The notes beneath the pieces were generated by a model. The model did not search any database and was not told the origin of the DNA. It saw only the letters and a program-made list of their open reading frames with translations. Source: Escherichia phage teqhad. From it: 64,000 nucleotides of DNA. This document shows positions 2,367 through 62,582 of the stretch, piece by piece. The position numbers and the translations under genes were made by a program. Location: sequence record NC_054933.1; one strand, given 5' to 3'. Positions within the stretch are counted from its first letter, which is position 1. Every line of letters starts with the position of its first letter.

Positions 2367-2392
2367 TTTCTGTTCCTCCGTAGTTGATAGGG

Positions 2393-2937: not shown

Positions 2938-2953
2938 TGTTTTGTGAAATTTT

Positions 2954-6961: not shown

Positions 6962-7165
6962 TTAATTCATATTACGCTTAATAACTTCAGCAACTTCTAG
7001 TAGTTCATCTTTAGTTGCGGTGTCGGATTGAATTTTATCTCTAATATCTTTAAAGCGGTTTTTAAATTCTTCGGCTTCTCCCATATCGAAAAAGCGTTGA
7101 ATGATTCTATATTCTCGATGAACTGCTTTATCAAAAAGTTCTAAATTTACTCTATATGATTTCAT
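6962..7165 (-). CDS. rIIA.1-like small protein (67 aa)
   Basis: Track ORF between 39 and rIIA. Confidence 0.55.
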
Positions 7166-7190
7166 TTCAATATCCTCATTTGCCCAATTA

Positions 7191-7220
7191 ATTATACCAC
7201 ATCCTTGTGGTAAAGTAAAC
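7191..7220 (-). promoter_or_regulatory. T4-type early promoter (overlaps the 3' end of gene 39)
   Basis: Minus strand GTTTACTTTACCACAAGGATGTGGTATAAT; near-identical copy at 54092..54121. Confidence 0.55.
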
Positions 7221-9037
7221 TACTGGCTCATCCATTCTTTGCGAAGGTCAGCATTATCTCCCATGAGCATTTCAAAAAGCTCTTTCCAGTTCTCAGGAAG
7301 TTTAACAACATCATATACTGGATTTTGAATCATCTCACGATATTCAGATTTTTCCAAAGAGCCAAGTCCTTTAATATAACGGATGCTATGTTTAGGTAGA
7401 GCATCTTTGGCACTCTCATATTCAGCGACTGTATAAAACCATTCTTGTTTTTTACCGACCTGAGCGATGATTACAGGAGTTTTGACAAAGCGAATTCGTC
7501 CTTGCTCAAACAATTCTGGCCAATTACTAAAAAACCCGAGCAGAGAAGGATAAATGCTTCCTAGACCATCATGGTCAGCATCAGTCATAATAGCAATATT
7601 ATGATAATTCAAGTTTTCAGCTTTTTCACCAAGAACTAATCCAGTGATTGCGCAAATATCAAACAGTTCTTTGTTTTTAAGCATATCAGCATATGACATA
7701 CCCCAGCTGTTAAGAACTTTACCACGCAATGGATAACCACCATGAAGTTCTTTATCACGAACATCAATAAGATATCCGATAGCAGAATCACCCTCAGTCA
7801 AGAAAAGAGTAGTATCAGCATCTTTACCGCAAAGATTCGCTTTGATATGTTTATGAACCTTAGCTTTAGAAGCCTTTTTAGCTGCTTTAGTTTCTGCTGC
7901 TTTTTCTGCTGCCAATTTACGAGCTAATGCTGCTTCAATAATTGGCATCAAAATTGCTTCATTATTTAGAATAGCGCGTGAAATCTTTTTAGCATCAAGT
8001 TGAATATGACTACGGATTTCACCAAATGGAGAAGTCAAACGCTCTTTAGTTTGAGAATCAAATCGCATGTTTTTCATATCACGAACAAACATAACGATAG
8101 TCAAACATTCTTTGACACGTGCTTTAGTTACATCAATTTTGAACTTACGTTTGATTTGTGGAATAAGGTCTTCACAAATATCATCCATAACACAGTCAAT
8201 GTGATGGCCACCATTCTTAGTGTGAATGTTATTCACGTAAGTTAATTGACGAAATCCATCCGGTGAACGACCAACCGCAATAGAACAATTTTCTTGTTCT
8301 TGAACGATAGCATGTTCATCATACTGTCGTGCATATTTCTTAAAATTGCCCTGAACCTTTTTACCATTAAAGGTAAATTGAATATCAGGATAAACAACAG
8401 CAAGTGTCTGGAGACGATCTAGCGTAATATCAAGATAAACTTGGGACAGCTCATTAGTTTCAAATGACATAAAATCAGGAATGAAAGTAACACGAGTTCC
8501 TTTCCATTTTCCAGGAATAGTTTCCCAGGATTTATTTTCCATGCCGTTTGAACAACGAACTACAATATTATTTTGACCATCGCCAGTTTCACCAACAAAC
8601 ATCACAGAAAAAATGTTTGTCAAACTAGAACCAACACCATTCATACCACCGGTGACGCGTTCTTTATCATCACCGAAGTTACCACCTGCTTTTGGAATAG
8701 TCCACGCAGCAACAGGACCAGGAATTTCTTCACCGGTAGGTGTTTTAACCATCGCTTGTGGAATACCGCGACCATTATCTTCAACTGTTACTTGATTGTT
8801 TTTAATAGTAACATTAATTTTATTTGCGAATTTAAACTTAGTACGAATACCTTCATCTACTGAGTTATCGATAATTTCATCAATAAGCTTAACAAGACCA
8901 GGTACATACTGAACACTTTCCCATTTACCAAACAGAAAGCGCTCATGCATTTCATTAGCAGAAGAGCCAATATACATGCCGCTACGCTTTTTGATATGTT
9001 CAATATCGCTCAGAATTTTAATTTCATTCTTAATCAT
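7220..9037 (-). CDS. 39: DNA topoisomerase II large subunit, uninterrupted (605 aa; equivalent to T4 gp39 plus gp60 as one ORF)
   Basis: Continuous ORF; ATG at 9037 with GAGGA SD; MIKNEIKILSDIEHIKKRSGMYIGS..., GyrB-like ATPase and TOPRIM. Confidence 0.9.
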   Translation of the reverse strand: MIKNEIKILSDIEHIKKRSGMYIGSSANEMHERFLFGKWESVQYVPGLVKLIDEIIDNSVDEGIRTKFKFANKINVTIKNNQVTVEDNGRGIPQAMVKTPTGEEIPGPVAAWTIPKAGGNFGDDKERVTGGMNGVGSSLTNIFSVMFVGETGDGQNNIVVRCSNGMENKSWETIPGKWKGTRVTFIPDFMSFETNELSQVYLDITLDRLQTLAVVYPDIQFTFNGKKVQGNFKKYARQYDEHAIVQEQENCSIAVGRSPDGFRQLTYVNNIHTKNGGHHIDCVMDDICEDLIPQIKRKFKIDVTKARVKECLTIVMFVRDMKNMRFDSQTKERLTSPFGEIRSHIQLDAKKISRAILNNEAILMPIIEAALARKLAAEKAAETKAAKKASKAKVHKHIKANLCGKDADTTLFLTEGDSAIGYLIDVRDKELHGGYPLRGKVLNSWGMSYADMLKNKELFDICAITGLVLGEKAENLNYHNIAIMTDADHDGLGSIYPSLLGFFSNWPELFEQGRIRFVKTPVIIAQVGKKQEWFYTVAEYESAKDALPKHSIRYIKGLGSLEKSEYREMIQNPVYDVVKLPENWKELFEMLMGDNADLRKEWMSQ

Positions 9038-10579: not shown

Positions 10580-10849
10580 TTAATTGAACAGTGGAGCGAT
10601 GCGTTTCAGAAGAGTAGCAGCACCTTTGGCAAATTTTACATCATGAAAAACAGTTTCTTCTTCCGTTACAACACGAGCTTTAATGTTTTCACAATCCCAA
10701 TTTTTGCGAACAATCTTCAAAAGCTGCAGTAAATCTTTACATTCAGCAATATCGATAACACATCCACGAGAATCTTCCATTATCGCACGATAACCGTAAG
10801 CCATACCATAATCATTGAAAGATTGCTCGATGATAATTAAATTTTCCAT
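10580..10849 (-). CDS. hypothetical protein (89 aa)
   Basis: Track ORF starts at TTG inside the conserved leader; the ATG at 10849 follows GGAGAATAAA. Confidence 0.5.
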   Translation of the reverse strand: MENLIIIEQSFNDYGMAYGYRAIMEDSRGCVIDIAECKDLLQLLKIVRKNWDCENIKARVVTEEETVFHDVKFAKGAATLLKRIAPLFN

Positions 10850-10955
10850 TTTATTCTCCAAGTTGTTTTCTGTATCAGTAGTTGATATTGATATAGTACC
10901 ATAATCAACTACTGATGTATATAGTTTTATGAAAAATTTTAAACTTTATGCAAAT

Positions 10956-11858: not shown

Positions 11859-11930
11859 AATTTTTCTCTCTTTGTTGTTAAGATTTATTCTCCATGAGAG
11901 CCATTATAACAGGCTCTCTATAAAGTAAAC

Positions 11931-12436: not shown

Positions 12437-12940
12437 TTAATCTAAGGTAATAAAGCCTTTTAATTCGGCATGTGACTTGCGGAACATTACTTGATGACCG
12501 CCAATGATAACTTGGTCATCAGGTACTTCGTATACAGCGAGATAAAATCCTTTAGAAGCTAATTCTTCACGCTCTTCTCGTGTGAACCATCTCATCATAT
12601 CATATTCGCTAGCGAAAGCAAAATGATAAAGAGCTATAAACCATCCTGGAATATAGTGATCTACGCCTACATATTCTTCTTTCTCAAAATTAGTATTAAT
12701 TGCTATATTAGCATTTTTAACTAATAGTTTGTCTTCGTGCGGAAGAGGAATTCTTTTATTATCATTACTATGATGCATAAAATTAGGTCTGTCATAACCT
12801 ACGTGTAATAACCACTCTTCGCTCCATGAATCTATTATACTCCTGTATGGCGTTATTTGAACACAAAGATCTCGACGTATTGTTATAGCATCTTCATAAT
12901 TAAGAATACTAAATGATGATTCAACACGATAAATTTTCAT
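12437..12940 (-). CDS. hypothetical protein (167 aa)
   Basis: Internal ATG at 12940 with GAGGAT SD downstream of the early promoter. Confidence 0.5.
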   Translation of the reverse strand: MKIYRVESSFSILNYEDAITIRRDLCVQITPYRSIIDSWSEEWLLHVGYDRPNFMHHSNDNKRIPLPHEDKLLVKNANIAINTNFEKEEYVGVDHYIPGWFIALYHFAFASEYDMMRWFTREEREELASKGFYLAVYEVPDDQVIIGGHQVMFRKSHAELKGFITLD

Positions 12941-12964
12941 TTTATTATCCTCAGTAGCTATGGT

Positions 12965-12998
12965 GTTATAGTACCACAACTAACCGAGGAAGTAAACA
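12965..12998 (-). promoter_or_regulatory. T4-type early promoter
   Basis: Minus strand GTTTACTTCCTCGGTTAGTTGTGGTACTATAAC. Confidence 0.55.
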
Positions 12999-13002
12999 AC
13001 TT

Positions 13003-13686
13003 TTATCGTTTTGTTGGAAGAGACAGAGGATCGCATTCTTCCTCTGACGGAGCATCTTCAAGACCCATAGCATATCGCAAAGCATACTTCATCATCAGGA
13101 TGTCTTTCGCACAGTCATGAATAGAATCATGTGCAACGAATCCATCTAAAGTTCCTTTTGGAAGAGGACACGTGGTCATATCACGAACAAGCAGAAGTGC
13201 TTCAATTCTGGTACGAATATCACGCTGATTCCAGAATTTACAAGGTTCTAACTTAAATGTATCAAGCTCATTCTCGGAAACGCCGTTAAGACGTTGAATA
13301 TCGCGAATGAGATCAACTAAAATTGGAAAATCAAACGACATTCCACGGCACCAGCCTTGAGATTTCCAAGGATCGATATTATGCGCATTGATGTAATCAT
13401 TAAATTTTGCAATACCATCGATAGTGCTTACATCTTCATCTGATGGTGCAATATTTTTTCGAGCTTCAGGAGATTGATTTTTCCACCATTCGATAGTGCT
13501 TTTAGTAAAAAGACGATGTCCTTTTTGGCTTTTTAAATCAAATTTGATTTTAATGCCACGTGAAACTAATTCATCAAATGTTTCAACGACTTCTGGATTA
13601 GGGTCAAAAGCAATTACAGCCAAATCAATAACAGCTGCTTTTTCACCGCTTCCCATTGTTTCAAAATCTATAATAAAATCAAACAT
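13003..13686 (-). CDS. dexA: exonuclease A (DEDDh 3'-5' exonuclease, 227 aa)
   Basis: MFDFIIDFETMG... DxE exonuclease motif; 227 aa as T4 DexA. Confidence 0.8.
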   Translation of the reverse strand: MFDFIIDFETMGSGEKAAVIDLAVIAFDPNPEVVETFDELVSRGIKIKFDLKSQKGHRLFTKSTIEWWKNQSPEARKNIAPSDEDVSTIDGIAKFNDYINAHNIDPWKSQGWCRGMSFDFPILVDLIRDIQRLNGVSENELDTFKLEPCKFWNQRDIRTRIEALLLVRDMTTCPLPKGTLDGFVAHDSIHDCAKDILMMKYALRYAMGLEDAPSEEECDPLSLPTKR

Positions 13687-16048: not shown

Positions 16049-16795
16049 TTATCCTCGGATAAGTTTAAAAATTGAACAATTTAGCGGGTATCCTCTTTTC
16101 AGTTTAAGTTTATCAATAAAAGACAAGTTTTGATACCGCTCTACACCTTGAATAATTTTATCACACATATCATATTGCATTTCTGCTTCTGACAACTTTT
16201 TCACAATTTTCCAATCCGAGCCTTTAAGAAGAACGTTCAGTTTAACAACTTCAGCGCCTTCTGCTATGCGAGAACCATCAATACGAGCTTTAAGTGCTAT
16301 AATCCTTAGCTTAATGTCAGAGGTCTGTTTTGATTTAGAAAGCTGAGAAATGTGTTCAATTCGATTTTCACGCTTTTTCTGTATAGCTTTAATTTGATTA
16401 TAAGTCTTTTTGATTTTAGCCCATTTCTTTTCATCTAAATTTAGTTTATGAACTTTTTTCGCAGATGAACGACCAATTCGCAAAGCAAATAAATCACGCT
16501 TTTCAATCAACTCTTCTAAAGTATAATCAGAACGAAATGTATTATACTTTTTCTTTACTGCAATAACATTTCCTTTAATGTATCCAACGTTATTATCAAA
16601 ACGTTCTAATGATAATTTCTCTCCTTCAATACGATTATCAAAAGGTTCTCCTGAATAGGCACAAACTTTCTGATCTAAAATGTTCTTAATGTAATTGAAG
16701 TCTAAGTTAAAATCTTTAGAACGTCTTTTAGCAGATGCCTGAGTGTGCTCTAAACGACGTTTAATTTTACGAATTTGATTATTAGACAGTTTCAT
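16049..16795 (-). CDS. srd: Srd-like protein (248 aa)
   Basis: Basic, helical 248 aa ORF immediately downstream of modA, as T4 srd. Confidence 0.5.
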   Translation of the reverse strand: MKLSNNQIRKIKRRLEHTQASAKRRSKDFNLDFNYIKNILDQKVCAYSGEPFDNRIEGEKLSLERFDNNVGYIKGNVIAVKKKYNTFRSDYTLEELIEKRDLFALRIGRSSAKKVHKLNLDEKKWAKIKKTYNQIKAIQKKRENRIEHISQLSKSKQTSDIKLRIIALKARIDGSRIAEGAEVVKLNVLLKGSDWKIVKKLSEAEMQYDMCDKIIQGVERYQNLSFIDKLKLKRGYPLNCSIFKLIRG

Positions 16796-16827
16796 ATTTT
16801 TCTCACATCTTACGGACGATTGACTAC

Positions 16828-16860
16828 TATACTATAACATTTTTACTTCAGATTGTAAAC
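16828..16860 (-). promoter_or_regulatory. T4-type early promoter
   Basis: Minus strand GTTTACAATCTGAAGTAAAAATGTTATAGTATAG. Confidence 0.45.
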
Positions 16861-16917
16861 AACTTTATGCAAAAATGCTTTAAAACTTTCGTGGTATAAT
16901 GAATCTAAGTCCTTCCA

Positions 16918-17520: not shown

Positions 17521-18140
17521 TCAACTACCTCAATATCATAAACTTTAAATGTTCCAAATGAATCGTGTAATTTTTCTTTTGAAATAGAAGTTATTCTATA
17601 CTTTCCAATTGGAATCATCCATTCCTGTTCACGCACAATCATCATTAAGTTATCAGTACGCTCTGAATCTAATCCATCAGTATCTTCATACGTGTACTTA
17701 AACTCAGTATTAGGAGAAGAAAGTATAATATCGCTGATATGGTCAGAATAATTAAAAGCTTTATTAGTTTTTAAGCGAAGTATTATTTTAGTAAAATATT
17801 CAGCATAAGAAAAAGAACATGCTGTGAGCAAACTAGTAGTAAATGAATCTACTCTATTCGTTGAAAACACTTCTCCAACTTGTAAATCTTTAATAAGTTC
17901 TTCTGTTGATTTTGATATACCACGATATAACTGATAAGGTGATTTAGTTAAATGCTTTTTAATGATTTTATTCAACTGCCTATGAAGAGCTTCATTCTTT
18001 TTAGCTTCCATACATTGCCAAAGAATTGACTGCTCAAAGTCAGTAAATTTTTCACAGACTTTTTTATACATATCATATTGAAAATCAACGCTTTCAGCTT
18101 TTATAGATAACTGTTCAACATCTGCAAGATTAATAATCAT
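17517..18140 (-). CDS. modB: ModB-like ADP-ribosyltransferase (207 aa)
   Basis: 207 aa, 4-nt overlap with modA. Confidence 0.65.
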   Translation of the reverse strand: MIINLADVEQLSIKAESVDFQYDMYKKVCEKFTDFEQSILWQCMEAKKNEALHRQLNKIIKKHLTKSPYQLYRGISKSTEELIKDLQVGEVFSTNRVDSFTTSLLTACSFSYAEYFTKIILRLKTNKAFNYSDHISDIILSSPNTEFKYTYEDTDGLDSERTDNLMMIVREQEWMIPIGKYRITSISKEKLHDSFGTFKVYDIEVVE

Positions 18141-18165
18141 GATAGCCTCCGTATACTTCAGAAGC

Positions 18166-18196
18166 TATCATATCATCGTTAGAAAGGAAAGTAAAC
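18166..18196 (-). promoter_or_regulatory. T4-type early promoter
   Basis: Minus strand GTTTACTTTCCTTTCTAACGATGATATGATAG upstream of modB. Confidence 0.5.
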
Positions 18197-18207
18197 AACT
18201 TTTTGAA

Positions 18208-18390
18208 TTATTTTGCCCAGGGAGCCCAAGGCGGAGGGTCAAGATGATATGAAGCTAGTTCTTCTAGAAGAGCATCTGGGGCTTCAATTCCATAATTCTG
18301 TAATACTATACGGTACTCTTTCTTATAATCACTAGAATCATTCTGGATATTCGTAGAATGATTATCTTCTAACATCTCAAATAAATCCAT
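18208..18390 (-). CDS. hypothetical protein (60 aa)
   Basis: Track ORF. Confidence 0.45.
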   Translation of the reverse strand: MDLFEMLEDNHSTNIQNDSSDYKKEYRIVLQNYGIEAPDALLEELASYHLDPPPWAPWAK

Positions 18391-20036: not shown

Positions 20037-20242
20037 TACAAAAAGCCTCTTTTGAATTCAACTTGTTTATCGCCATAATCATATCGAATCTCTGCATTAA
20101 ATTCGACAGAGCCATCTGCGTACATCATAAATGAATGCACAACAACTTCTGTAGACCATGGTTGTAGTTCATATTTCTTCATTACATGCCGTGAAATGAT
20201 AATATCTAAATCTTCATTTGGTTTAATCCAGCGATTTAACAT
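20036..20242 (-). CDS. hypothetical protein (68 aa)
   Basis: Track ORF; GAGGAG SD; early promoter upstream. Confidence 0.5.
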   Translation of the reverse strand: MLNRWIKPNEDLDIIISRHVMKKYELQPWSTEVVVHSFMMYADGSVEFNAEIRYDYGDKQVEFKRGFL

Positions 20243-20266
20243 AGTGCTCTCCTCTATAAGATAATT

Positions 20267-20298
20267 CTATTATACCATACTCATTGTGGAAAGTAAAC
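20267..20298 (-). promoter_or_regulatory. T4-type early promoter
   Basis: Minus strand GTTTACTTTCCACAATGAGTATGGTATAAT. Confidence 0.55.
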
Positions 20299-20303
20299 CG
20301 GTA

Positions 20304-20335
20304 AAATGAAAAAGGACTCCCGAAGGAGTCCTTGA
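20304..20335 (-). terminator. intrinsic terminator (GGACUCC-UUCG-GGAGUCC plus U-tract) downstream of soc
   Basis: Minus-strand RNA AAGGACUCCUUCGGGAGUCCUUUUUCAUUUU. Confidence 0.6.
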
Positions 20336-23954: not shown

Positions 23955-24247
23955 TATTCACCTACCACTTCAGCGATGATATTTTTATTATTAAAGTTTT
24001 TATCGCAATACAGAACATAATTATACTGCATTACACCACCAGACTTAAGCTGTTTTTGCACTTCGGCTTTCATTTCAGGACGATCGCGCTCAACGATATT
24101 CATAATATCTGCTTCAATTTGGGTTTCAACCTCAGTCTGATCAGCAGTCATAGACCATTCGCACAAATCTTTATCATAACCTGCCATAGCAGGCTGAGCA
24201 GCACAAGAAGCTAAAGCAAAAATTGCAGCAAAGATAAATTTTTTCAT
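23954..24247 (-). CDS. sp: Spackle-like periplasmic protein (97 aa, signal peptide)
   Basis: Signal peptide MKKFIFAAIFALASCAAQPAMA; 97 aa as T4 sp; position between 61.2 and 61.4. Confidence 0.6.
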   Translation of the reverse strand: MKKFIFAAIFALASCAAQPAMAGYDKDLCEWSMTADQTEVETQIEADIMNIVERDRPEMKAEVQKQLKSGGVMQYNYVLYCDKNFNNKNIIAEVVGE

Positions 24248-24305
24248 GATAATCTCCTCAGTAGTTTATGTTTATAATATCTCAATTTCCAATAAAAGTA
24301 AACAG

Positions 24306-24563
24306 TTATTTTAAAACTTCTGCATAATCACATGTTACAAACTGTTTCTCTAGCTTGACGATTTTACGAAAATACCTTTTGCATTGACGAATCTGCCGCT
24401 TCGTAGGGCGAACAGCAAACTTAATAAATTCCACTCGACCAAATGGAGGGCTTTCTTCTGCTGGAATATCTAACACCAATTCCCACGTATCTGCAATAAG
24501 TGCTTTGAATTGCGTATTTTTCCTGGCGTTATACGGAGTAGGTTTAAATAAAACAATATGCAT
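24306..24563 (-). CDS. 61.4-like small protein (85 aa) adjacent to dmd
   Basis: GAGGAT SD; TAATG coupling to dmd. Confidence 0.5.
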   Translation of the reverse strand: MHIVLFKPTPYNARKNTQFKALIADTWELVLDIPAEESPPFGRVEFIKFAVRPTKRQIRQCKRYFRKIVKLEKQFVTCDYAEVLK

Positions 24564-24564: not shown

Positions 24565-24747
24565 TTATCCTCGGCAATCTACTTCACATACTTTCTTGTC
24601 ATCAATGAAAGCTTTAACTAATGCTTTATTAACTTCAGCATATTGAGTAGTAGCCCATTGAACGTCATCTTTCATCATTGTGATTTCTTTAGTAAACATG
24701 CTTTCATTCTTAAACCACCCCATAAAAACTACCTTTACCAATTCCAT
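24565..24747 (-). CDS. dmd: Dmd (60 aa)
   Basis: MELVKVVFMGWFKNESMFTKEITMMKDDVQWATTQYAEVNKALVKAFIDDKKVCEVDCRG matches my memory of T4 Dmd; the track ORF is extended 5 codons at the N-terminus. Confidence 0.75.
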   Translation of the reverse strand: MELVKVVFMGWFKNESMFTKEITMMKDDVQWATTQYAEVNKALVKAFIDDKKVCEVDCRG

Positions 24748-24774
24748 AACAATCTCCCCCATTTAACCAACAAG

Positions 24775-24807
24775 ACTACTATACCATAGTCTTGTCAGCT
24801 TGTAAAC
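24775..24807 (-). promoter_or_regulatory. T4-type early promoter upstream of dmd
   Basis: Minus strand GTTTACAAGCTGACAAGACTATGGTATAGT. Confidence 0.5.
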
Positions 24808-26234
24808 TAAAATTTTAATTCATTTGCCAAAGCATCTAACTGGGCTCGAGTGGATTCATTTCTTTGATAGCGATTCTGCTCAGCCTGAATCTGTTGTGAA
24901 CCTGCTACTTCGTTCACTTCAGTTGGAGTAGAATCTTGCTCAATTTCTACCCATTTCTGATTTCCTTTTTGAACACCCATCAAAAACTTATTCCATTTAT
25001 TCTTATCGCCATATCGTGATTTGATTTGCTTAATGAGTTGTTGTTCAGCAGCTGCTAACTCCTCGGTTTCAATGACCGCAAGCATAAAATCGGCTGTTGC
25101 TGGAAGACCGGCAGATTCTGCAATATCGCTCATGTTAACATCAGAAGAATCCCAAGCTTGTTTGCCGACCTGTGCTGCAGTCCAAAGAACAGTTTCGGTT
25201 TCAACAGCCAGAGCACGCAATTCCTCTGCAATAGCTTTAACAGTCGTGTAACTATTTTCTGAATAAACTCTAATGCGGCAAGATTTACAAATACCCAGAT
25301 AGTCAACAATAATGATTGTTGGAACAAAATTCTTCTTGAGCTTCAATTCGTTTAAAAGAGATCGAAATGTATTAGCGTCTGCTCCACCAGTAGGATACTG
25401 TTTAACGATTAAACGACCGAGAGTAGATTTCTCACGCCATTTTTCCATTTTTCCTTTATACTCAGCGTAAGAAATATGCCCATCATCAATGTCATCAAGA
25501 GAAACATCAAGCATATTAGCATCAATACGTTTAGCACAGACTTCTTCTGCCATTTCCATGGAAATGTAAAGAACATTATGTCCAAGCTGCAAATAATCTG
25601 CTGCTAATGAACACAATCCTAATGACTTACCAACGTTAACGCCAGCCATTAAAACGTTCAGCGTTCCAGTCTCAGCTCCGCCTTTAGTAATTTTGTTTAG
25701 AATTCTGAGTTTAAATGGAACCTTACGAGCTTTATTCATATAAGATAGCCAACGTGCTTCGTAGTCATCCATCCAATCATGACCAACGTAGCTATCAAAT
25801 GAAATTGATAATGCTTGACGCATAATGTCAGGAATAGCACCAACATCCGGCATTTTCTTATTTCGTTTTTCCGGAGGAAGCTCAGCATTAGTTTGAATTT
25901 CGATTATTTTAGACGTAGCATTAAACATCGCCCTTTGCTGAACATATTTTTCTGTTTCTTTTATTAACCAACTGTGGTCTTCCGGAGAATCAGCCAGTTT
26001 TGAAATAAGTGTTTTTACACCAGAATATTCTGTTTCAGTAAATGAACTATTTTCTAATGCAACATTTAACGCATTAATAGATGGAACGCTATGATACTCA
26101 TTAACATGAGATTTAATTAATTTGAATGTATTTTTAGCTGGACCACTTTCAAAATATTCTGAATCCATATATGGCCAAACTTTTGAAAAATAAGCTTGAT
26201 CAAATATGAGATGAGAAAGAATAATTTCTACCAC
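24807..26234 (-). CDS. 41: replicative DNA helicase gp41 (DnaB-like, 475 aa)
   Basis: Walker A GVNVGKS; 475 aa; GTG start 5 nt after AAGGAG. Confidence 0.92.
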   Translation of the reverse strand: MVEIILSHLIFDQAYFSKVWPYMDSEYFESGPAKNTFKLIKSHVNEYHSVPSINALNVALENSSFTETEYSGVKTLISKLADSPEDHSWLIKETEKYVQQRAMFNATSKIIEIQTNAELPPEKRNKKMPDVGAIPDIMRQALSISFDSYVGHDWMDDYEARWLSYMNKARKVPFKLRILNKITKGGAETGTLNVLMAGVNVGKSLGLCSLAADYLQLGHNVLYISMEMAEEVCAKRIDANMLDVSLDDIDDGHISYAEYKGKMEKWREKSTLGRLIVKQYPTGGADANTFRSLLNELKLKKNFVPTIIIVDYLGICKSCRIRVYSENSYTTVKAIAEELRALAVETETVLWTAAQVGKQAWDSSDVNMSDIAESAGLPATADFMLAVIETEELAAAEQQLIKQIKSRYGDKNKWNKFLMGVQKGNQKWVEIEQDSTPTEVNEVAGSQQIQAEQNRYQRNESTRAQLDALANELKF

Positions 26235-30223: not shown

Positions 30224-30460
30224 TCAAATGCAAGTAGTAATTACTCCAGTAGTGCTTATGCAGGTATTACCCATTTGCACACCTAAAGATCCATTTGTAT
30301 TCACATGAAGATTATCATCAATTTTTGTTGATACTTTACCATTCATGTGAATAACAGTATTAGATTCAATCACATTCTGAGTATCATTTTCAATATCAAT
30401 AAATGAAACAGCTGCTAATGCAACTAAACACACTGCTAAGCAACCATAAACAATTTTCAT
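30224..30460 (-). CDS. small secreted protein (78 aa)
   Basis: Track ORF starts at TTG in the conserved leader; ATG at 30460 after GGAGAATAAA; N-terminal signal-like segment. Confidence 0.5.
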   Translation of the reverse strand: MKIVYGCLAVCLVALAAVSFIDIENDTQNVIESNTVIHMNGKVSTKIDDNLHVNTNGSLGVQMGNTCISTTGVITTCI

Positions 30461-30491
30461 TTTATTCTCCAAATCCGTATTAGTTGATAGT

Positions 30492-30524
30492 TGTATAGTA
30501 CCACAGAGGAACAGTCTTGTAAAC
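30492..30524 (-). promoter_or_regulatory. T4-type early promoter
   Basis: Minus strand GTTTACAAGACTGTTCCTCTGTGGTACTATAC. Confidence 0.55.
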
Positions 30525-30605
30525 AGTTTTGTGAAAAATTTTTTAGGGAATTCTAAAGGTCCAGAATCATCTGTTTTTCATAAGTATAGATTTATATTAC
30601 TTGTA

Positions 30606-45906: not shown

Positions 45907-46075
45907 GGAGTTTAATTTCCTTAGCAACTGAACTAAATACAGCACGATCACAAACCATGCGTTTGTTCCATTTAATCACAGTATAATGAACATCTAGATC
46001 ATCGACTGCTGTAACAATAACGATATGTCCGTTAACACGATAGTACTGGTCAATTTTAATCTCTTTATCAACCAT
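45899..46075 (-). CDS. small protein (58 aa)
   Basis: Hand-translated MVDKEIKIDQYYRVNGHIVIVTAVDD...; downstream of the early promoter at 46104..46134. Confidence 0.35.
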   Translation of the reverse strand: MVDKEIKIDQYYRVNGHIVIVTAVDDLDVHYTVIKWNKRMVCDRAVFSSVAKEIKLHG

Positions 46076-46103
46076 ATCAATTCCTCAAAGGTAATTCATA
46101 TGT

Positions 46104-46134
46104 TAATAATACCACGGTTTGAACCTGTTGTAAA
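46104..46134 (-). promoter_or_regulatory. T4-type early promoter
   Basis: Minus strand GTTTACAACAGGTTCAAACCGTGGTATTAT. Confidence 0.45.
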
Positions 46135-46204
46135 CAACTTTGTGAAAAATATTTTAGGGAATGATAAGAAAGGAACGATAGCTTAGAATGGTAATATACA
46201 GAAT

Positions 46205-53061: not shown

Positions 53062-54063
53062 TTACTTAATTAACTGTAAAGCTTGTTCAAGACGATCCAG
53101 GCGATTAACAGATTCTTCCCAAATCCTTTTAGCCTGCTCATATTCTTTCTGCGCTTTATTAGAAATTTCTAGAACTTCTTTATAAGCTTTTTCTAATGCA
53201 ATAACTTCTGGACGAATTTCTACCGGTTCAGGCGAATCATCAAGATTATCCATTAGTTCCTCAAGTGTAGTTTCTTCTTTAGGAGTATTCACAATTTCTT
53301 CACATTTTTGTTGGTAAATTTCTTTATCAGTTAGTGAATAAGCACATTTCACTTCACGAAGGCTAATTACGAGTTTATATCCTTCCCAACCGCATATATT
53401 CTTAAAAGGATATGTATGAATATTTTCTACTGTTTCCATACAAAGTAATGCGGTCTCTAATTGACGAGTTATAGTGCTAGCAATTGAGAAAAATTTATTA
53501 ATATTCTTTTGGTTAGTTTCTGGTGTAAAAAATCCATAATTCACAAAAATAGCTACTTTATTTTTATCAAGTTCATATTCTTTTATGATAATCATATCAG
53601 AAGCCAAAGGATGAATTTGACGATAATCGCCATAACATAATTTAGAAGCTGATTTTAGAATTTGCTTCTTGAAAAGTCTGAAATTACTAATCCAACGACG
53701 AGTAAAAATATTCTCAGGGTCTTCTTTATTATTGAGATGATAAGAATTAACATCACCGAACCAATTATATCCTACTACATCTTTAGTTCGTTTAATTTCT
53801 TTCCCAAAATTACCAAGAATATCCCGATTAACCAAATATGAAAGAAGACGAGACTCTTTAAAGGTTTTCTTGATAACATCTTTATCTACACGGCTAGAAA
53901 TTTTACGAATTTCATGAATAAATTTAGTAGAAGAAACAATACCTGCATCAACACTATTGAGCCATTGATTGATAATAGAAAGAACGCTATTTTGGCCAAA
54001 CATCGGTATAGCTTTATCATCAATAACGCTATTGAATGATTTGATATATTCGTTACGAGTCAT
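53062..54063 (-). CDS. paralog B of the 4-gene tandem family (333 aa)
   Basis: Track ORF trimmed to MTRNEYIKSF... (GAGGAG SD); C-terminal coiled coil. Confidence 0.6.
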   Translation of the reverse strand: MTRNEYIKSFNSVIDDKAIPMFGQNSVLSIINQWLNSVDAGIVSSTKFIHEIRKISSRVDKDVIKKTFKESRLLSYLVNRDILGNFGKEIKRTKDVVGYNWFGDVNSYHLNNKEDPENIFTRRWISNFRLFKKQILKSASKLCYGDYRQIHPLASDMIIIKEYELDKNKVAIFVNYGFFTPETNQKNINKFFSIASTITRQLETALLCMETVENIHTYPFKNICGWEGYKLVISLREVKCAYSLTDKEIYQQKCEEIVNTPKEETTLEELMDNLDDSPEPVEIRPEVIALEKAYKEVLEISNKAQKEYEQAKRIWEESVNRLDRLEQALQLIK

Positions 54064-54091
54064 ATTAATCTCCTCAGTAGAAAGTAAGAAC

Positions 54092-54121
54092 ATTATACCA
54101 CATCCTTGTGGCAAAGTAAAC
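54092..54121 (-). promoter_or_regulatory. T4-type early promoter, near-identical to the copy at 7191..7220
   Basis: Minus strand GTTTACTTTGCCACAAGGATGTGGTATAATG. Confidence 0.55.
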
Positions 54122-55140
54122 TAGTTCAGTGCATTTAGTGCATTGTTCAGTTTAGAACGTTGCTTCATGAGATTTTTGACTTTTTCTTGTGCTTTTTCTA
54201 GCATCTTTTCAGCTTCTAGCACTTCATTGGTCGCTTTAACGAGTTCATCATCTACTGCCTTAAGGGACTTCTCAATCGCATCCGCGTGCCATTTTTCAAC
54301 AGGTTTAAGACTCGGATTTTCAATAGGAAGAAAATTCACTTTATTGAATTTCCATGCATCTTTATTGCCTGAACTATACATCCAAAATTTAGGATCGTTT
54401 GATGAGTAATTAGATAAATTTAAGTTATCTTGCACTTCTTGCTTTTTCTCTTGCGGGACTTCGTCCTTTCTCAAAAAATCGTATTTAAATGAAACGATCA
54501 TATCAAGTTCATATGTTGTTGTATGTTCCCAATTTCGCTCAAAACGAGGTAAAATCTTAGAATGAACAGCGGCAACAACATCCATATACTTAAATGCTTC
54601 TGTCAACTGCGATTTAAGGCATTCGCAAATTGAAAGAGAATTTTTTGTATTAGGTTTAAAGCTAATTCGTGCAGTTCTATTATTTTCTTTTAATGGTCTT
54701 ACTTCCATCTGAAGAGTATAACCATCAAATTTCAGGTTCTTTAAGTTAATGTCAGAACCTTTTAATCGACTAGCCGTCGACAAAATTTGCTTTAATTGTT
54801 TACGGAATAGAGCAATAAATCTCCATTCAATACGATAATGATTTGGATTGAAAAATCCAGATGATAAATCGACCTTACTCTGACCAACACCTTGAACAAA
54901 CAGAGGATTTTTATAATCAATAGTTTTACAGAAATCGGTGAGCTGCTCACGAGCAGTCATTTGTGTAATATACCCCGCTTTACTAAAATGACGTAACCAT
55001 TCACTGCTATTCATATATTTAAAGTGAATATCACGATTAACTTTATCAGGGTCTAAATTATTTTGGCACAAAAATGTCATAACATCACGAGTATAGCTGG
55101 CATTACGAACCATATCTTCAATTTGAGAACGAGTTTTCAT
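54121..55140 (-). CDS. paralog C of the 4-gene tandem family (339 aa)
   Basis: Starts MKTRSQIEDM...; C-terminal coiled coil. Confidence 0.6.
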   Translation of the reverse strand: MKTRSQIEDMVRNASYTRDVMTFLCQNNLDPDKVNRDIHFKYMNSSEWLRHFSKAGYITQMTAREQLTDFCKTIDYKNPLFVQGVGQSKVDLSSGFFNPNHYRIEWRFIALFRKQLKQILSTASRLKGSDINLKNLKFDGYTLQMEVRPLKENNRTARISFKPNTKNSLSICECLKSQLTEAFKYMDVVAAVHSKILPRFERNWEHTTTYELDMIVSFKYDFLRKDEVPQEKKQEVQDNLNLSNYSSNDPKFWMYSSGNKDAWKFNKVNFLPIENPSLKPVEKWHADAIEKSLKAVDDELVKATNEVLEAEKMLEKAQEKVKNLMKQRSKLNNALNALN

Positions 55141-56507: not shown

Positions 56508-57035
56508 TTATGCGAGTACCGTCTTTAACCGTTCTTCAAACTTCCGAAGAGTATTCTGGCGTTCAGCTCTTTGCTTTTTGTAAGTTTCAATACGCTCTGA
56601 AATGAGAGTGTATCGTTCATTTACTGATTCTTTCATAAAATCAGGAATTTCACGAGAAGCTTTAATCTCATCAAATTTATCAATAACAGCTTGCTCTTCA
56701 GCAATTAAGTTATCATACATCAAAATATCTTTCTTGATGAACTCAATATCTTCTTGAGTTACACGAGATAATTTAGATGCTTTATCCTTTTTGTACTGTT
56801 CGTTAGTATCACGAGACCAGTGTAATGTACGATTTTTATTCGTATTTTTGTAAATTTCTACAATACCAATCTCATCAATAATAACGATCCAATTCCAACG
56901 GGATTTGTAAATTTGTCCTCCATCAACCGTGATTTCACCTCCGATTGAGATGTCATTAAAGAACTTGCTTTGTGCTTCTGATTTAAATTTACCATCATTG
57001 TAATTTACCAGGTTGAAAATATCTTTAGCGTTCAT
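56508..57035 (-). CDS. hypothetical protein (175 aa)
   Basis: ATG after GGAGGAACAGAAA in the conserved leader. Confidence 0.5.
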   Translation of the reverse strand: MNAKDIFNLVNYNDGKFKSEAQSKFFNDISIGGEITVDGGQIYKSRWNWIVIIDEIGIVEIYKNTNKNRTLHWSRDTNEQYKKDKASKLSRVTQEDIEFIKKDILMYDNLIAEEQAVIDKFDEIKASREIPDFMKESVNERYTLISERIETYKKQRAERQNTLRKFEERLKTVLA

Positions 57036-57061
57036 TTTCTGTTCCTCCGTAGTTGATAGTT

Positions 57062-57093
57062 GTATAGTACCACAGAGGAACAGTCTTGTAAAC
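57062..57093 (-). promoter_or_regulatory. T4-type early promoter
   Basis: Minus strand GTTTACAAGACTGTTCCTCTGTGGTACTATAC. Confidence 0.55.
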
Positions 57094-57095
57094 CA

Positions 57096-57410
57096 CTAAA
57101 AGAAACTTCTTTCACAATTTTTTCCACTGAACCATGCGCTCACTGCTTTCTTAGTCTCAGGAGCAGTGTTATCCATAAACCATTCAAAGGCAGCCTTTTT
57201 ATGATTCTGGAGGGCTTCTCGGGCTTTAATCTGCTCACGGTCTATTAACACTAACATATGAGCCTTTCTTGTCACCAAGGGCTTCTTATGATTCTTGGAG
57301 TATTCCCAGTCATTTGTCCAACGCATTGTCGTTGCGAACTGAAATACTGCTTCTTTAATTTTAGTTTCGTAAATTTCACGAGCCTTTGAGTATAACATCA
57401 TTACCTCCAT
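57096..57410 (-). CDS. hypothetical basic protein (104 aa)
   Basis: Track ORF. Confidence 0.5.
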   Translation of the reverse strand: MEVMMLYSKAREIYETKIKEAVFQFATTMRWTNDWEYSKNHKKPLVTRKAHMLVLIDREQIKAREALQNHKKAAFEWFMDNTAPETKKAVSAWFSGKNCERSFF

Positions 57411-57499: not shown

Positions 57500-58468
57500 T
57501 TATTTCAGAAGAGTAACCTCAGCGATTTCTTCCCAACCGTTTTTGTCGGTCATAATAAAGTCAGCAAGATAAAGAGCAGTACGCAGTGAAACATTGCGTA
57601 AACGATTAACATTGACTTTCATCCATGATAATGCTTTATAAGTTTCTTCATCAGAAAGACCACGCTTTTGCATCATGTCAGTTGAAAGAATAACATCTTC
57701 AACCCTGACCATAATTTCTTCATTAGTGTGAACACCCAAATCCAAATAAACTGAGCGGGACACTAATGCTTGTAAATGTGGAGCAAGTTTAGTACCACGG
57801 TCTAATTCGCGGTCAATGTCAACGTTTGTGATAAAAACAATCGTTCCTTTAAATTCAAACTCACGCTCAATGCCTTTTTCTTCTAAGTAAGAAGATGCAG
57901 TGCTCCAGCAGACTTTACGGGTCTCTCCAGTGTCCAGAGCAGCTTTCAGAAGATTAAGAATGTCCATATCAGAGAAAACATCCACATCATCAATCAAAAG
58001 GACAGAATTCTCTTCACGATTATTCCAAAGTTGTTCATAAAGACCGATACCGGAGATTTTACCGTTAATGCTTTTATATTCAATGTATCCATTATCATTT
58101 GCTTTATTTAAAGCTTTATCTAAAGAATACGTTTTACCAATACCTGCTGCTCCCGAGATAATTAATGAACGAATGTTTCCGTTAATAATACCATTCGTCA
58201 TCATTCCCATAACATTAAATCTTTTATTAATGCGGGTTTTCATATCTTCATATGATTCTTTAACTTCTTCAACTTTTACACCATCATATGAAATGTCTGA
58301 TTTGTAAACCCAAACACCGCGACGTTTACCGTCAATTTCAACAAAAACTTTACCATCTCCTTGTGCATCTACCGGAGCATTATCTGGGAACCATTCACCT
58401 AAGAGCTCAAAAGTTCCAGAGATTTCTTTACCGAAGTAGATACCCTTATTGATAGTTACAGTTTTCAT
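57500..58468 (-). CDS. P-loop NTPase (322 aa)
   Basis: Walker A GAAGIGKT and Walker B LLIDDVD; track ORF trimmed at the TTG/ATG artefact (MKTVTINKG...). Confidence 0.6.
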   Translation of the reverse strand: MKTVTINKGIYFGKEISGTFELLGEWFPDNAPVDAQGDGKVFVEIDGKRRGVWVYKSDISYDGVKVEEVKESYEDMKTRINKRFNVMGMMTNGIINGNIRSLIISGAAGIGKTYSLDKALNKANDNGYIEYKSINGKISGIGLYEQLWNNREENSVLLIDDVDVFSDMDILNLLKAALDTGETRKVCWSTASSYLEEKGIEREFEFKGTIVFITNVDIDRELDRGTKLAPHLQALVSRSVYLDLGVHTNEEIMVRVEDVILSTDMMQKRGLSDEETYKALSWMKVNVNRLRNVSLRTALYLADFIMTDKNGWEEIAEVTLLK

Positions 58469-58499
58469 TTTATTCTCCAAATCCGTATCAGTTGATAGT

Positions 58500-58532
58500 T
58501 GTATAGTACCATAAAGCTTTATGCTTGTAAAC
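58500..58532 (-). promoter_or_regulatory. T4-type early promoter
   Basis: Minus strand GTTTACAAGCATAAAGCTTTATGGTACTATAC. Confidence 0.5.
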
Positions 58533-58552
58533 CGTTTTGTGAAAAATTTTTG

Positions 58553-58582
58553 AAATAAAAAAGGGAGCCCGAAGGCTCCCTA
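58553..58582 (-). terminator. intrinsic terminator (GGGAGCC-UUCG-GGCUCCC plus U-tract)
   Basis: Minus-strand RNA AGGGAGCCUUCGGGCUCCCUUUUUUAUUUC. Confidence 0.6.
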
Positions 58583-61573: not shown

Positions 61574-61677
61574 TACATACTCCTTTGAATCATATCAATA
61601 ATATTGTTCACCAGATTATAGGTAAACATTGGGTAATTATATTGAATCATCACATATATAACAAACAAAACTTTCAT
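61573..61677 (-). CDS. small hydrophobic peptide (34 aa)
   Basis: Hand-translated MKVLFVIYVMIQYNYPMFTYNLVNNIIDMIQRSM; TAATG coupling to the next gene. Confidence 0.3.
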   Translation of the reverse strand: MKVLFVIYVMIQYNYPMFTYNLVNNIIDMIQRSM

Positions 61678-61704
61678 TCTCTTCTCCTTGACAGTTGACA
61701 AGAT

Positions 61705-61734
61705 TACTATACCATAACCTTGCCAACTTGTAAA
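61705..61734 (-). promoter_or_regulatory. T4-type early promoter
   Basis: Minus strand GTTTACAAGTTGGCAAGGTTATGGTATAGT. Confidence 0.5.
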
Positions 61735-61900
61735 CCGTTAAATGTTGTTTTCAATAAAATTCTGAAGCTTTGTGTGAGCATCAACCATGATTTTCATTTC
61801 TTCCTTTGCGAAAGCTGTACCTCTTTCCCGAGCAGAATACTCATAGTCAGAAACTGCATTAGCATATTCTTCAATTAGCTTCATTAAAAACATCTGCTTT

Positions 61901-62301: not shown

Positions 62302-62489
62302 TATTCCACCACATATGAAAGAGAGAATATTGCACACGCCATGTGAGTTGCAACTTCATCACACATATTATAACGTTTCTTAAGAAGTTCTACAAGTTCT
62401 TCACTAGTAACTTCATCCATGTCGACGAAAAAATCACCATTAATGATGACGTAGATATTTCCTTCTTGATTAAGTGCTTCAATTTTCAT
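62301..62489 (-). CDS. hypothetical protein (62 aa)
   Basis: Track ORF. Confidence 0.45.
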
Positions 62490-62514
62490 GATGTTCTCCT
62501 CTTTATCCGATGGT

Positions 62515-62547
62515 TGTATAGTACCACGGCTCAGACGGAAAGTAAAC
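62515..62547 (-). promoter_or_regulatory. T4-type early promoter
   Basis: Minus strand GTTTACTTTCCGTCTGAGCCGTGGTACTATAC. Confidence 0.55.
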
Positions 62548-62554
62548 CGGTAAA

Positions 62555-62582
62555 ATGAAAAAAGTCTCCCGAAGGAGACTAA
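62555..62582 (-). terminator. intrinsic terminator (GUCUCC-UUCG-GGAGAC plus U-tract)
   Basis: Minus-strand RNA AGUCUCCUUCGGGAGACUUUUUUCAUUUU. Confidence 0.6.

Follow-up and report, generated by a model that had tools for sequence, protein, structure and literature searches.

A repeated promoter-leader cassette in front of small early genes of a T4-like phage

Background

The early promoters of phage T4 have been described as GTTTAC at -36 to -31, a GT-rich or TGn extended -10, a -10 element at -12 to -7, and an A-rich UP element (PMC1524935, PMC2988021). Promoter-early stem-loops (PeSLs) are related elements, which are also described as giving mini-circles when neighbouring copies exchange. 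The PeSL consensus in T4 and PST is TTTACW-N17-TAYWAT, and modular shuffling mediated by PeSLs has already been proposed in print (PMC4122927; PMC2839356, PMC4122927). Leaders of T4 early mRNAs contain targets of the RegB/S1 endoribonuclease, with the single-stranded 11-nt consensus GGAGRAYARAA (Durand 2006, PMC1702504). The T4 genes e, soc, 49 and I-TevI have a promoter inside a hairpin that sequesters the ribosome-binding site, the 3' arm lying over the Shine-Dalgarno (SD) sequence or the AUG (PMC3014915). Long RNAs started upstream are therefore untranslatable, while the 5' arm is missing from RNAs that start at the internal promoter.

The window analysed here is a stretch of 64,000 nucleotides of Escherichia phage teqhad (NC_054933.1), a Tequatrovirus genome that is colinear with T4 positions 164,388–168,903 plus 1–60,234, the T4 early arm. 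A unit of about 60–95 bp is repeated within it and fronts about 17 small early genes. This promoter-leader cassette is real and abundant, but it has been described before, and so has the proposal that it acts as a recombination 'landing pad'. Only the sense-strand stem between the promoter spacer and the SD could extend what is known.

Occurrence of the cassette

The fixed pattern GTTTAC-N18-TAYWRT has 18 matches in the window, all 18 of them on the minus strand. The chance expectation is 0.19, based on 100 dinucleotide shuffles, none of which reached a count of 18. There are 17 strong copies of the cassette, named here by the position of the G of GTTTAC (or the first base of the degenerate -35 in copy 10922), and each is followed by an SD and an ATG opening a real ORF. 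The preliminary description had the unit recurring at least 15 times, and this is borne out. A position weight matrix search of both strands found 19 sites on the minus strand, none on the plus strand and close to none in shuffled sequence, an enrichment that is partly circular because the matrix was derived from the cassette copies themselves. A generic sigma-70 scan of the window gave 76 matches with 62 expected, which is no enrichment, and so only the T4-specific consensus discriminates. Four more pattern matches (40107, 45696, 50526, and 61627) lie within genes; these are doubtful and may not be promoters.

The copies differ in how closely they resemble one another. Four that had been described as near-identical over more than 50 bp are 70–87% identical over 54–63 nt, although they do have an identical 22-nt block, TGGTACTATACAACTATCAACT, in common. 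For the pair at 7186..7222 and 54084..54121 a match of about 35 bp had been claimed, and 29 of 30 positions agree across the -35 to -10 span. The features are listed in Table 1.

Table 1. Cassettes and associated features in the window, with the position of the G of GTTTAC where given
Feature	Coordinates	Strand	G of GTTTAC	Remarks
nrdC.8-homolog promoter, the cassette in focus	57033..57117	-	57093	GTTTAC 57093-57088; TGG+TACTAT 57072-57064; predicted +1 57057; SD GGAGG; ATG 57035-57033
UP region of nrdC.8 cassette	57094-57117	-		Inside 3' end of nrdC.9 homolog
15-bp stem-loop within nrdC.8 cassette	57039..57083	-		Fold -25.4 kcal/mol, z -5.25; 5' arm is promoter spacer + TGG (57083-57069), 3' arm is leader including SD (57053-57039); loop contains -10 and predicted start site
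ndd.4-homolog cassette	2364..2448	-	2424	Paralog of 57093; spacer-to-SD stem 2414-2400 / 2384-2370, as in copy 57093
ndd.6-locus cassette	2871..2961	-	2937	Fronts 87-aa ORF not in T4; leader GGAGAGTAAAATG
rIIA.1-homolog cassette	7163..7244	-	7220	Spacer holds small hairpin CCACAAGGATGTGG; stop TAG of upstream 606-codon gene shares G with GTTTAC
Degenerate -35 cassette	10847..10946	-	10922 (first base of ATATAC)	Before 89-aa ORF with an internal deletion in T4; strong stem brackets -10; exact RegB consensus GGAGAATAAAA in leader
motB-type promoter, probable	11903..11930	-		Short spacer GTTTAC-N16-TATAAT; 7-bp stem GAGAGCC/GGCTCTC brackets -10
motB.2-homolog cassette	12938..13021	-	12997	Spacer pairs with post-10 region and SD
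srd-homolog cassette	16793..16884	-	16860	Without stem
modB-homolog cassette	18138..18220	-	18196	-10 TATGAT; SD predicted occluded in read-through RNA
mrh.2-homolog cassette	20240..20332	-	20298	UUCG-loop terminator hairpin (about 20313-20332) directly upstream
sp-homolog cassette	24245..24327	-	24303	Without stem
dmd-homolog cassette	24745..24831	-	24807	Stop TAG of upstream gene 41 shares G with GTTTAC; 15-bp stem 24800-24786 / 24779-24765 brackets TGGTAT of -10
imm.1-locus cassette	30458..30548	-	30524	Fronts 78-aa ORF not in T4; mosaic of type-A spacer and GGAGAATAAAATG leader
55.6-homolog cassette	46073..46159	-	46135	
nrdC.4-homolog cassette	54061..54145	-	54121	-35 to -10 span 29/30 with copy 7220; stop TAG of nrdC.5 homolog shares G with GTTTAC
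nrdC.10-homolog cassette	58466..58581	-	58532	UUCG-loop terminator 58581-58562 directly upstream; leader GGAGAATAAAATG includes TTG behind MENKM mis-start
mobD.2-homolog cassette	61675..61759	-	61735	Paralog of 24807 with compensatory changes; 15-bp stem 61728-61714 / 61707-61693 brackets -10
mobD.5-homolog cassette	62487..62580	-	62547	UUCG-loop terminator 62580-62563 directly upstream; spacer pairs with post-10 region and SD

Promoter structure and genomic context

The most conserved columns among the copies are the UP element, the -35, the TGn, the -10 and the SD. Exact GTTTAC with 18 nt to the -10 element is present in 16 of the 17 strong copies, the remaining one (10922) having ATATAC. 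The sequence TGGTA(C/T)(T/A)(A/G)T is found in 13 copies, with TGTTATAGT or TGATATGAT in two and AGATATTAT in one. In the unit as first described, TATA(A/C) was out of register; the -10 element is TA(C/T)(T/A)(A/G)T after TGG. The register of the unit agrees with both the published description of T4 early promoters and the PeSL consensus of T4 and PST. The UP element, at about -40 to -60, has an A/T-rich consensus with a conserved A at about -40 to -44, and is often encoded within the 3' end of the upstream gene. The overlap of cassettes with upstream genes, already remarked on in the preliminary description, is seen in 10 copies, where the upstream stop codon is 2–19 nt before GTTTAC; in three of these (7220, 24807, and 54121) the last base of the stop codon TAG is also the G of GTTTAC. 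An ATG with its SD is positioned 55–73 nt past the G of GTTTAC in every one of the 17 copies, and the predicted leaders are 19–37 nt long.

Each strong copy is at a T4 site directly 5' of an early gene, and T4 has the same pattern there. These sites are ndd.4, ndd.6, rIIA.1, motB.2, srd, modB, mrh.2, sp, dmd, imm.1, 55.6, nrdC.4, nrdC.8, nrdC.10, mobD.2, and mobD.5. All copies are oriented in the direction of early transcription. The ORFs behind the 17 strong copies encode 34–333 aa, with a median of 78 aa, and there are no cassettes in the 31–45 kb region, which contains genes 43, regA, 62, 44, 45, 46, 47, and 55. In the public records MT682714 (phage Lutter) and LR215724 (fPS-65), 'promoter' is annotated at these cassettes.

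The copies are very probably the early, sigma-70-dependent promoters of a T4-like phage, with a short leader and a ribosome-binding site joined to each. The match of the -35, TGn, -10 and UP element supports the fit to the T4 early promoter consensus that had been suggested for them. Consensus and genomic position together point to their identity with the published T4 early promoters, to which they are alike in GTTTAC at -36 to -31, the TGn extended -10, the -10 register, the A-rich UP element, location at T4 early-gene sites and use of the counter-clockwise strand. Nothing substantive sets them apart; only the ORFs behind some of the promoters differ in this phage. That the cassettes fire, and do so from the predicted start sites, is likely from the consensus, their position and the literature.

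It is extremely improbable that the repeats are instead MotA-dependent middle promoters, or repeats of another class such as transposon ends or homing-endonuclease sites. Many prereplicative genes are located in this region, and several homing-endonuclease genes are present or absent between T4 and the window. However, a MotA box would read (a/t)(a/t)(a/t)TGCTTtA with its centre at -30, whereas the -35 region here is GTTTAC. All copies have one orientation, each is immediately upstream of an SD and ATG, and none of the mob, seg or intron differences from T4 has its junction at a cassette. Middle promoters and repeats of the other classes were both rejected.

By the established biology of T4, the cassettes would act as early promoters just after infection, when the alpha C-terminal domains of the host RNA polymerase, one of them ADP-ribosylated by the injected Alt protein, would bind the A/T-rich UP element. 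Across a spacer of 17 bp, sigma-70 would contact (G)TTTAC(A/T) at the -35 on one side and, on the other, TAnnAT at the -10 with its TGn extension. Counting from the G of GTTTAC, transcription would start about 36 nt further downstream, which would generate the 19–37 nt leader, and translation of the early gene, in most cases a small one, would be driven by the GGAG SD in the leader. The SD of several copies may double as a RegB/S1 cleavage site, through which the early mRNA would later be inactivated.

Leaders and RegB sites

GGAG is present within the SD of 13 of the 17 copies. The full RegB consensus GGAGRAYARAA has only three exact matches in the 64 kb (10849-10859, 30460-30470, and 58468-58478), all of which are in cassette leaders. 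Copies 10922, 30524, and 58532 have the leader GGAGAATAAAA(TG), an exact match to the T4 RegB consensus, GGAGAAUAAAA, and near matches are found in the leaders of copies 2937, 61735, 54121, and 62547. Compared with known RegB/S1 targets, the GGAGGAACAG-type leaders do not follow the consensus in its A-rich 3' half. The near-identical leaders carry the target GGAGAAUAAAA and are candidate substrates for RegB/S1 cleavage.

The GGAGAATAAAATG leader was at first taken to be that of T4 motA. This is only partly right: the T4 motA promoter agrees in its UP element, its -10 and its first transcribed bases, but its SD is different. The same leader accounts for the spurious MENKM start reported previously, as the mechanically called ORF 57500..58480 opens TTG GAG AAT AAA ATG, whereas T4 nrdC.10 is annotated from the ATG.

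Probable common descent and exchange of cassettes

Sequence identity between the copies reaches positions without known polymerase contact, in blocks that are common to subsets of the copies. The spacer AAGACTGTTC.. is found in three copies and the spacer CCACAAGGA in three, and there are two alternative leaders. Among paralogous cassettes, the same variant patches are found at different loci in different genomes, and in phage Lutter the leader type has been swapped at one locus. At the ndd.6 locus, four ORF arrangements are present behind one constant cassette. Their left boundary is exactly the cassette ATG, and GAG(A/T)AAAATGAAA is repeated at each module junction.

Selection on polymerase and ribosome contacts might have produced copies that are functionally convergent only, with neither common descent nor a role in recombination. 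The most conserved columns are indeed the known functional elements, and of the 23 indel junctions between the window and T4 just three are at a cassette, no enrichment in this single comparison (P about 0.3). Convergence is nevertheless unlikely given the blocks of identity beyond known contacts, the two alternative leaders, the patches that recur at different paralogous loci, the leader swap in Lutter, and the use of the cassette as the exact left boundary of the four ORF arrangements. A cassette subfamily related by descent, the members of which exchange short patches, would account for these features. The constant promoter-leader would then double as a junction for the gain, loss or swapping of ORFs, as in the 'mobile regulatory cassette' idea already published for PeSLs.

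The suggestion that the copies provide dispersed homology for recombination is therefore supported in a modified form. The patchy sharing of variants among paralogs and the ORF arrangements at the ndd.6 locus favour it, but the indel junctions do not. The three junctions that are at cassettes are deletions between direct repeats of 6–12 nt at or just after the cassette ATG, and none is an exchange between full cassettes. In this respect they differ from PeSLs (Arbiol 2010, PMC2839356; Comeau 2014, PMC4122927): the junctions consist of short SD-ATG repeats that mark the cassette's 3' edge and are not whole-PeSL exchanges. Like PeSLs, the cassettes are found before small non-essential ORFs, in hyperplastic regions outside the replication core, and they may be associated with ORF gain, loss and replacement; the ndd.4-ndd.6 locus is also in Fig. 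6A of Comeau 2014 (PMC4122927). A slot equipped with a promoter and able to take single ORFs also resembles integron cassettes and lambdoid 'morons', a comparison made by the PeSL authors. There is, however, no integrase or attC site here, and the junctions are formed by short direct repeats or by homology in the promoter-leader.

Stem-loops embedded in the promoters

A PeSL combines AT-rich sequence upstream with an early promoter, a stem-loop and, at the 3' end, the SD and ATG of the following ORF, an arrangement to which the cassettes correspond. [quoted passage not shown] The stem-loops, part of the published PeSL definition, are missing from the preliminary description. A hairpin test in a 41-nt window (-32 to +9) found no general enrichment (P 0.2). 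Because this window cut off the 3' arms, a test of spacer-versus-leader duplexes was adopted, in which 8 of the 17 copies have a stem between the spacer and the post-10 region or leader that is past the 5th percentile of the genomic background (binomial P 6e-7). Small hairpins within the spacer are present in four more copies, and three copies are immediately preceded by a UUCG-loop terminator with its T-tract. In about 7 of the 17 the stem is weak or lacking, and three to four have none at all. They are therefore not a universal component of the cassette, being convincing in about half to two-thirds of the copies, which is a difference from PeSLs. The location also differs, as the PST stem-loops are just upstream of the promoter (Comeau 2014, PMC4122927) and most of the stems here bracket the -10.

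The embedded stems take their 5' arm from the untranscribed spacer of the promoter, and their 3' arm covers the SD or the first transcribed bases; in five copies (57093, 2424, 12997, 62547, and 20298) the SD itself forms the 3' arm. The spacer-to-leader stem can form only in RNA reading through from upstream. The stems are backed by covariation, with 96% paired and both sides changed in 7 of 15 pairs, and sense-strand folds are 7.2 kcal/mol more stable than antisense folds. At the nrdC.8 locus relatives have four different stems, and the T4 motB promoter has another stem, GGGACC/GGTCCC, at the place that corresponds to the stem at 11903..11930. The geometry in the same five copies is that of the hairpins that sequester ribosome-binding sites (Uzan and Miller 2010, PMC3014915). 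In the known examples, however, the promoter is a late one and the hairpin prevents early transcripts from yielding late proteins, whereas the internal promoter here is early and the effect is predicted by folding only.

Tentatively, the stems may act on read-through RNA, by which delayed-early or middle transcripts are meant. The gene would then be translated only from the mRNA of its own promoter, and would otherwise be silent and probably RegB-resistant; this is possible, although on balance doubtful. Occlusion of the SD as a general property of the cassette was rejected (Wilcoxon P 0.64), and is true of a subset of copies only.

The promoter-embedded stems could also be terminators or attenuators that insulate the cassettes from upstream transcription, the function proposed for PeSL stem-loops. 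One RB49/phi1 PeSL stem-loop cut expression of a downstream lacZ about as much as rrnB T1 (PMC2839356), and the three cassettes with canonical UUCG-loop terminators and T-tracts directly upstream are in keeping with such insulation. Reading of the sequences, however, reveals no T-tract after the stems that bracket the -10 (57093, 2424, 24807, 61735, 10922, and 12997), so these are not canonical intrinsic terminators, and a 3' arm that is the SD in five copies points to translation and not termination. Termination is therefore a rather unlikely function for them.

A role at the level of DNA, either as operators to which a dimeric early-promoter repressor binds or as cruciform recombination targets, is highly unlikely. 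The stems do overlap the -10, where a repressor would act, and the PeSL authors speculated on a DNA-binding protein for GGGG/CCCC stems. The stem sequences are, however, wholly different between copies, and between relatives at one locus, and so there is no common operator sequence. Their reliance on G-U pairs and their much better folding on the sense strand argue for RNA, and a protein operator was rejected on the basis of this bias and the absence of a common stem sequence.

Conclusions

The cassettes mark about 17 transcription units in the window and are of value for annotation, as the true start codon is the ATG and not the upstream TTG. Because UP elements are encoded there, the 3' ends of the upstream genes are constrained. 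The cassettes also flag the slots at which small accessory genes are swapped in T4-like phages.

If the stem does silence read-through RNA, the promoter-inside-hairpin logic of the T4 late genes e, soc, 49, and I-TevI would extend to early promoters, and PeSL stem-loops would gain a function other than termination. It would also explain how some early genes of T4 are confined to the first minutes after infection.

Early promoter cassettes

The repeated unit corresponds to known T4 early promoters, of the kind also described as promoter-early stem-loop (PeSL) cassettes; the repeat itself is confirmed and this interpretation is supported. There are 17 strong copies, named by the window position of the G of GTTTAC, where the preliminary description had counted at least 15. 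The pattern GTTTAC-N18-TAYWRT has 18 matches in the window, on the minus strand only, against 0.19 expected from dinucleotide shuffles, and a looser variable-gap pattern has 7 against 0.15. The proposed weight-matrix search of both strands, which is partly circular because the matrix derives from the copies themselves, finds 19 minus-strand matches, none on the plus strand and approximately none in shuffled sequence. A generic sigma-70 scan of the window is not discriminating, with 76 matches against 62 expected. Copy 10922 has a degenerate -35, copy 11930 is probably an extra promoter with a short spacer, and no strong copy lies in the replication-gene block (~31–45 kb). In each strong copy an ATG with a Shine-Dalgarno (SD) sequence follows 55–73 nt past the first base; the ORFs so opened are real (34–333 aa, median 78 aa).

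In T4 early promoters GTTTAC occupies -36 to -31, with a UP-like A-rich region at -40 to -44, a GT-rich run before -12, A at -11 and T at -7 (Nolan et al. 2006, PMC1524935). They have been termed 'über' UP/-35/TGn/-10 promoters; they have further consensus positions, and Alt-modified polymerase stimulates them (Hinton 2010, PMC2988021). By the published numbering, the predicted start site of copy 57093, 5' of the nrdC.8 homolog, is at ~57057 and the predicted 5' UTRs of the cassettes are 19–37 nt. Tequatrovirus genomes are ~98% identical to the window, which is colinear with T4 164,388–168,903 and then 1–60,234, the early counter-clockwise arm. All strong copies map to T4 sites immediately 5' of early genes, where T4 has the same promoter pattern. 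Consensus and sites agree with the published promoters, as the promoter reading had it, and a 'promoter' feature is already marked at these cassettes in some public genome records. PeSLs combine an AT-rich region, early promoter, stem-loop and SD/ATG and sit in hyperplastic regions; it has been proposed that they mediate the shuffling of modules and the formation of mini-circles (Arbiol et al. 2010, PMC2839356; Comeau et al. 2014, PMC4122927). The unit is exactly the T4/PST consensus TTTACW-N17-TAYWAT of Comeau et al. (PMC4122927), and copies 2424 and 2937 stand at ndd.4/.5, where that paper illustrates an exchange. Both the promoter and the recombination readings have therefore been published before.

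To describe copies 2937, 30524, 57093 and 58532 as near-identical over more than 50 bp is an overstatement: they are 70–87% identical over the spans given, although they share an identical 22-nt block, TGGTACTATACAACTATCAACT; a repeat search recovers five copies that, over 94 nt, are 69–88% identical to the reference copy. The close match of 7220 and 54121, put at about 35 bp, is 29 of 30 positions from -35 to -10. Overlap with upstream genes holds: in ten copies the distance from the upstream stop codon to GTTTAC is 2–19 nt, which makes the UP element coding sequence, and in 7220, 24807 and 54121 the stop TAG and GTTTAC have their G in common. The suspected TTG mis-start is also found, the mechanical ORF 57500..58480 opening TTG GAG AAT AAA ATG (MENKM), whereas T4 nrdC.10 is annotated from the ATG.

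RegB inactivates early mRNAs. The T4 RegB/S1 target is GGAGAAUAAAA (Durand et al. 2006, PMC1702504), or GGAGRAYARAA when written with degenerate positions; the latter occurs three times in the window, always in cassette leaders (10922, 30524, 58532). GGAG is within the SD in 13 of 17 copies. Together these indicate two roles for the conserved GGAG..A-rich..ATG part, that of ribosome-binding site and, judging by its sequence, that of a putative RegB site.

Features of the cassettes and of the comparison with T4 (window positions)
Feature	Position	Strand	Details
Strong copies (n=17), G of GTTTAC	2424, 2937, 7220, 10922, 12997, 16860, 18196, 20298, 24303, 24807, 30524, 46135, 54121, 57093, 58532, 61735, 62547	minus	T4 genes downstream of the sites: ndd.4, ndd.6, rIIA.1, cef-proximal ORF, motB.2, srd, modB, mrh.2, sp, dmd, imm.1, 55.6, nrdC.4, nrdC.8, nrdC.10, mobD.2, mobD.5
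Copy 57093	57117 -> 57035	minus	A/T-rich stretch, GTTTACA (G 57093), 14-nt spacer, TGGTACTAT, ACAACTATCAACTACGGAGGAACAGAAA, ATG at 57035
Stem of 57093, 5' arm	57083-57069		Spacer + TGG; loop holds -10 and predicted start site
Stem of 57093, 3' arm	57053-57039	minus	ACTACGGAGGAACAG, SD included
Doubtful pattern matches	40107, 45696, 50526, 61627		Intragenic
Mosaic spacer AAGACTGTTC..	2424, 30524, 57093
Mosaic leader ACGGAGGAACAGAAAATG	2424, 57093
Mosaic leader GATACGGATTTGGAGAATAAAATG	2937, 30524, 58532
Mosaic spacer CCACAAGGA	2937, 7220, 54121
GGGCC-GAAG-GCCC hairpins	3561-3594, 3793-3826, 9074-9107, 41602-41635, 45242-45275		UUCG loop on minus strand
Sites of segments absent vs T4	7555-7620, 21544-21565, 42827-42853, 47624-47644, 48920-48923		Clean
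Exchanged T4 segments	27751-28696, 20522-20985, 59598-60559		segA + beta-glucosyltransferase; segF; mobD
Insertions vs T4	9370-9741, 14189-14419, 33420-33664, 40857-41450, 44405-44664, 61117-61561		230-600 bp
49-nt repeat	22966-23014, 23324-23372		98% identity, 358 bp apart
Direct repeats, motB region	10987-11079/11416-11508, 11290-11337/11785-11832		71-79% identity, spaced 429-495 bp

Stem-loops bracketing the -10

The preliminary description did not mention stem-loops. Copy 57093 folds with a 15-bp stem (-25.4 kcal/mol, z -5.25). In 8 of 17 copies, pairing of the spacer with the post-10/leader region falls outside the 5th percentile of the genomic background (binomial P 6e-7), and the SD is part of the 3' arm in five of these eight (2424, 57093, 12997, 62547, 20298). 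Small intra-spacer hairpins are present in four copies, and UUCG-loop terminators directly 5' of the cassette in three. A family of GGGCC-GAAG-GCCC type hairpins followed by T-runs look like intrinsic terminators of early transcription units. At the nrdC.8 locus, relatives have four unrelated stem sequences, each bracketing the -10, one of which (TCTCCAGTAG / CTACTGGAGG) also pairs with the SD. For the dmd and mobD.2 paralogs, taken with a third type, 96% of cells are paired, compared with 31–63% in slid controls, and both sides have changed in 7 of 15 pairs, with the caveat that one of the five rows was picked because it folds.

The stems use G-U pairs, and the sense fold is better than the antisense by 7.2 kcal/mol (background -1.3 +/- 3.3). 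This points to an RNA structure on read-through transcripts that start upstream and cross the promoter, and away from a DNA cruciform or protein operator. The -10-bracketing stems are not canonical terminators, since the sequences have no T-tract past the stem. SD occlusion is not a general property of the 17 copies (P 0.64); folding predicts it in copies 2424, 57093 and 18196, whose SD has an unpaired probability of 0.66–0.83 in the own-promoter transcript but only 0.21–0.28 in read-through RNA. The function of these promoter-embedded RNA stems is an inference. Their nearest known parallel is found in T4 genes e, soc, 49 and I-TevI, whose hairpins have a late promoter inside an RBS-sequestering stem (PMC3014915).

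Cassettes as probable recombination junctions

Between the window and T4, 3 of 23 indel/replacement junctions touch a cassette, with no enrichment (P ~0.3). All three are deletions in T4 between direct repeats of 6–12 nt (ATGAAA(A/T), AAAATT) that lie at the cassette ATG or just past it, so that T4 keeps the promoter, lacks the 87-aa and 78-aa ORFs and has a truncated 89-aa ORF; the PHROG families of these three ORFs have no known function. At T4 ~166997-167023, opposite window 2610-2873, all that the ndd.6-locus cassette drives is an ORF of 8 codons, MKIAEIEL, with a stop overlapping the ndd.6 ATG (ATGA); it is the leftover of the deleted 87-aa ORF, which the window has.

Other differences from T4 were also seen. 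The mobA/60.1 segment between genes 60 and 39, the dam methylase gene, mobB, mobC and the nrdD intron with I-TevII are absent from the window, with junctions away from the promoter cassettes, and three T4 segments are exchanged for unrelated sequence of other length. Six insertions, also away from the cassettes and with junction overlaps of 0–7 nt, may be small ORF modules joined via other short repeats. At the gene 61.1/61.2 junction (T4 19128-19176), the window has ~309 extra bp together with the 49-nt repeat, which suggests tandem duplication of a small ORF. The motB region is only ~69–80% identical to T4, and its direct repeats suggest tandem paralogous genes.

Stronger support for recombination than the junctions with T4 comes from three observations. 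The cassettes are mosaics of shared spacers and leaders. The same variant patches turn up at one paralogous locus or another, depending on the genome: one genome has an nrdC.8-type core at ndd.4, another an ndd.4-type discriminator at nrdC.8, and the imm.1-locus spacer is nrdC.8-type in the window and ndd.4-like in T4. The ndd.6 locus has four ORF arrangements behind one cassette, with an 87-aa ORF in the window and phage Lutter (which has the other leader type), a 68-aa ORF in T2, both in tandem in UFV09, and neither in T4 and RB18. The left boundary of these modules is exactly the cassette ATG, and every module junction carries a short copy of the leader 3' end, GAG(A/T)AAAATGAAA. The dispersed homology had been proposed to serve recombination; what stands is that the cassette acts as a junction for ORF swapping, where the events seen are for the most part exchange between short repeats at the cassette's 3' edge and short-patch conversion between paralogs, rather than cassette-to-cassette excision.
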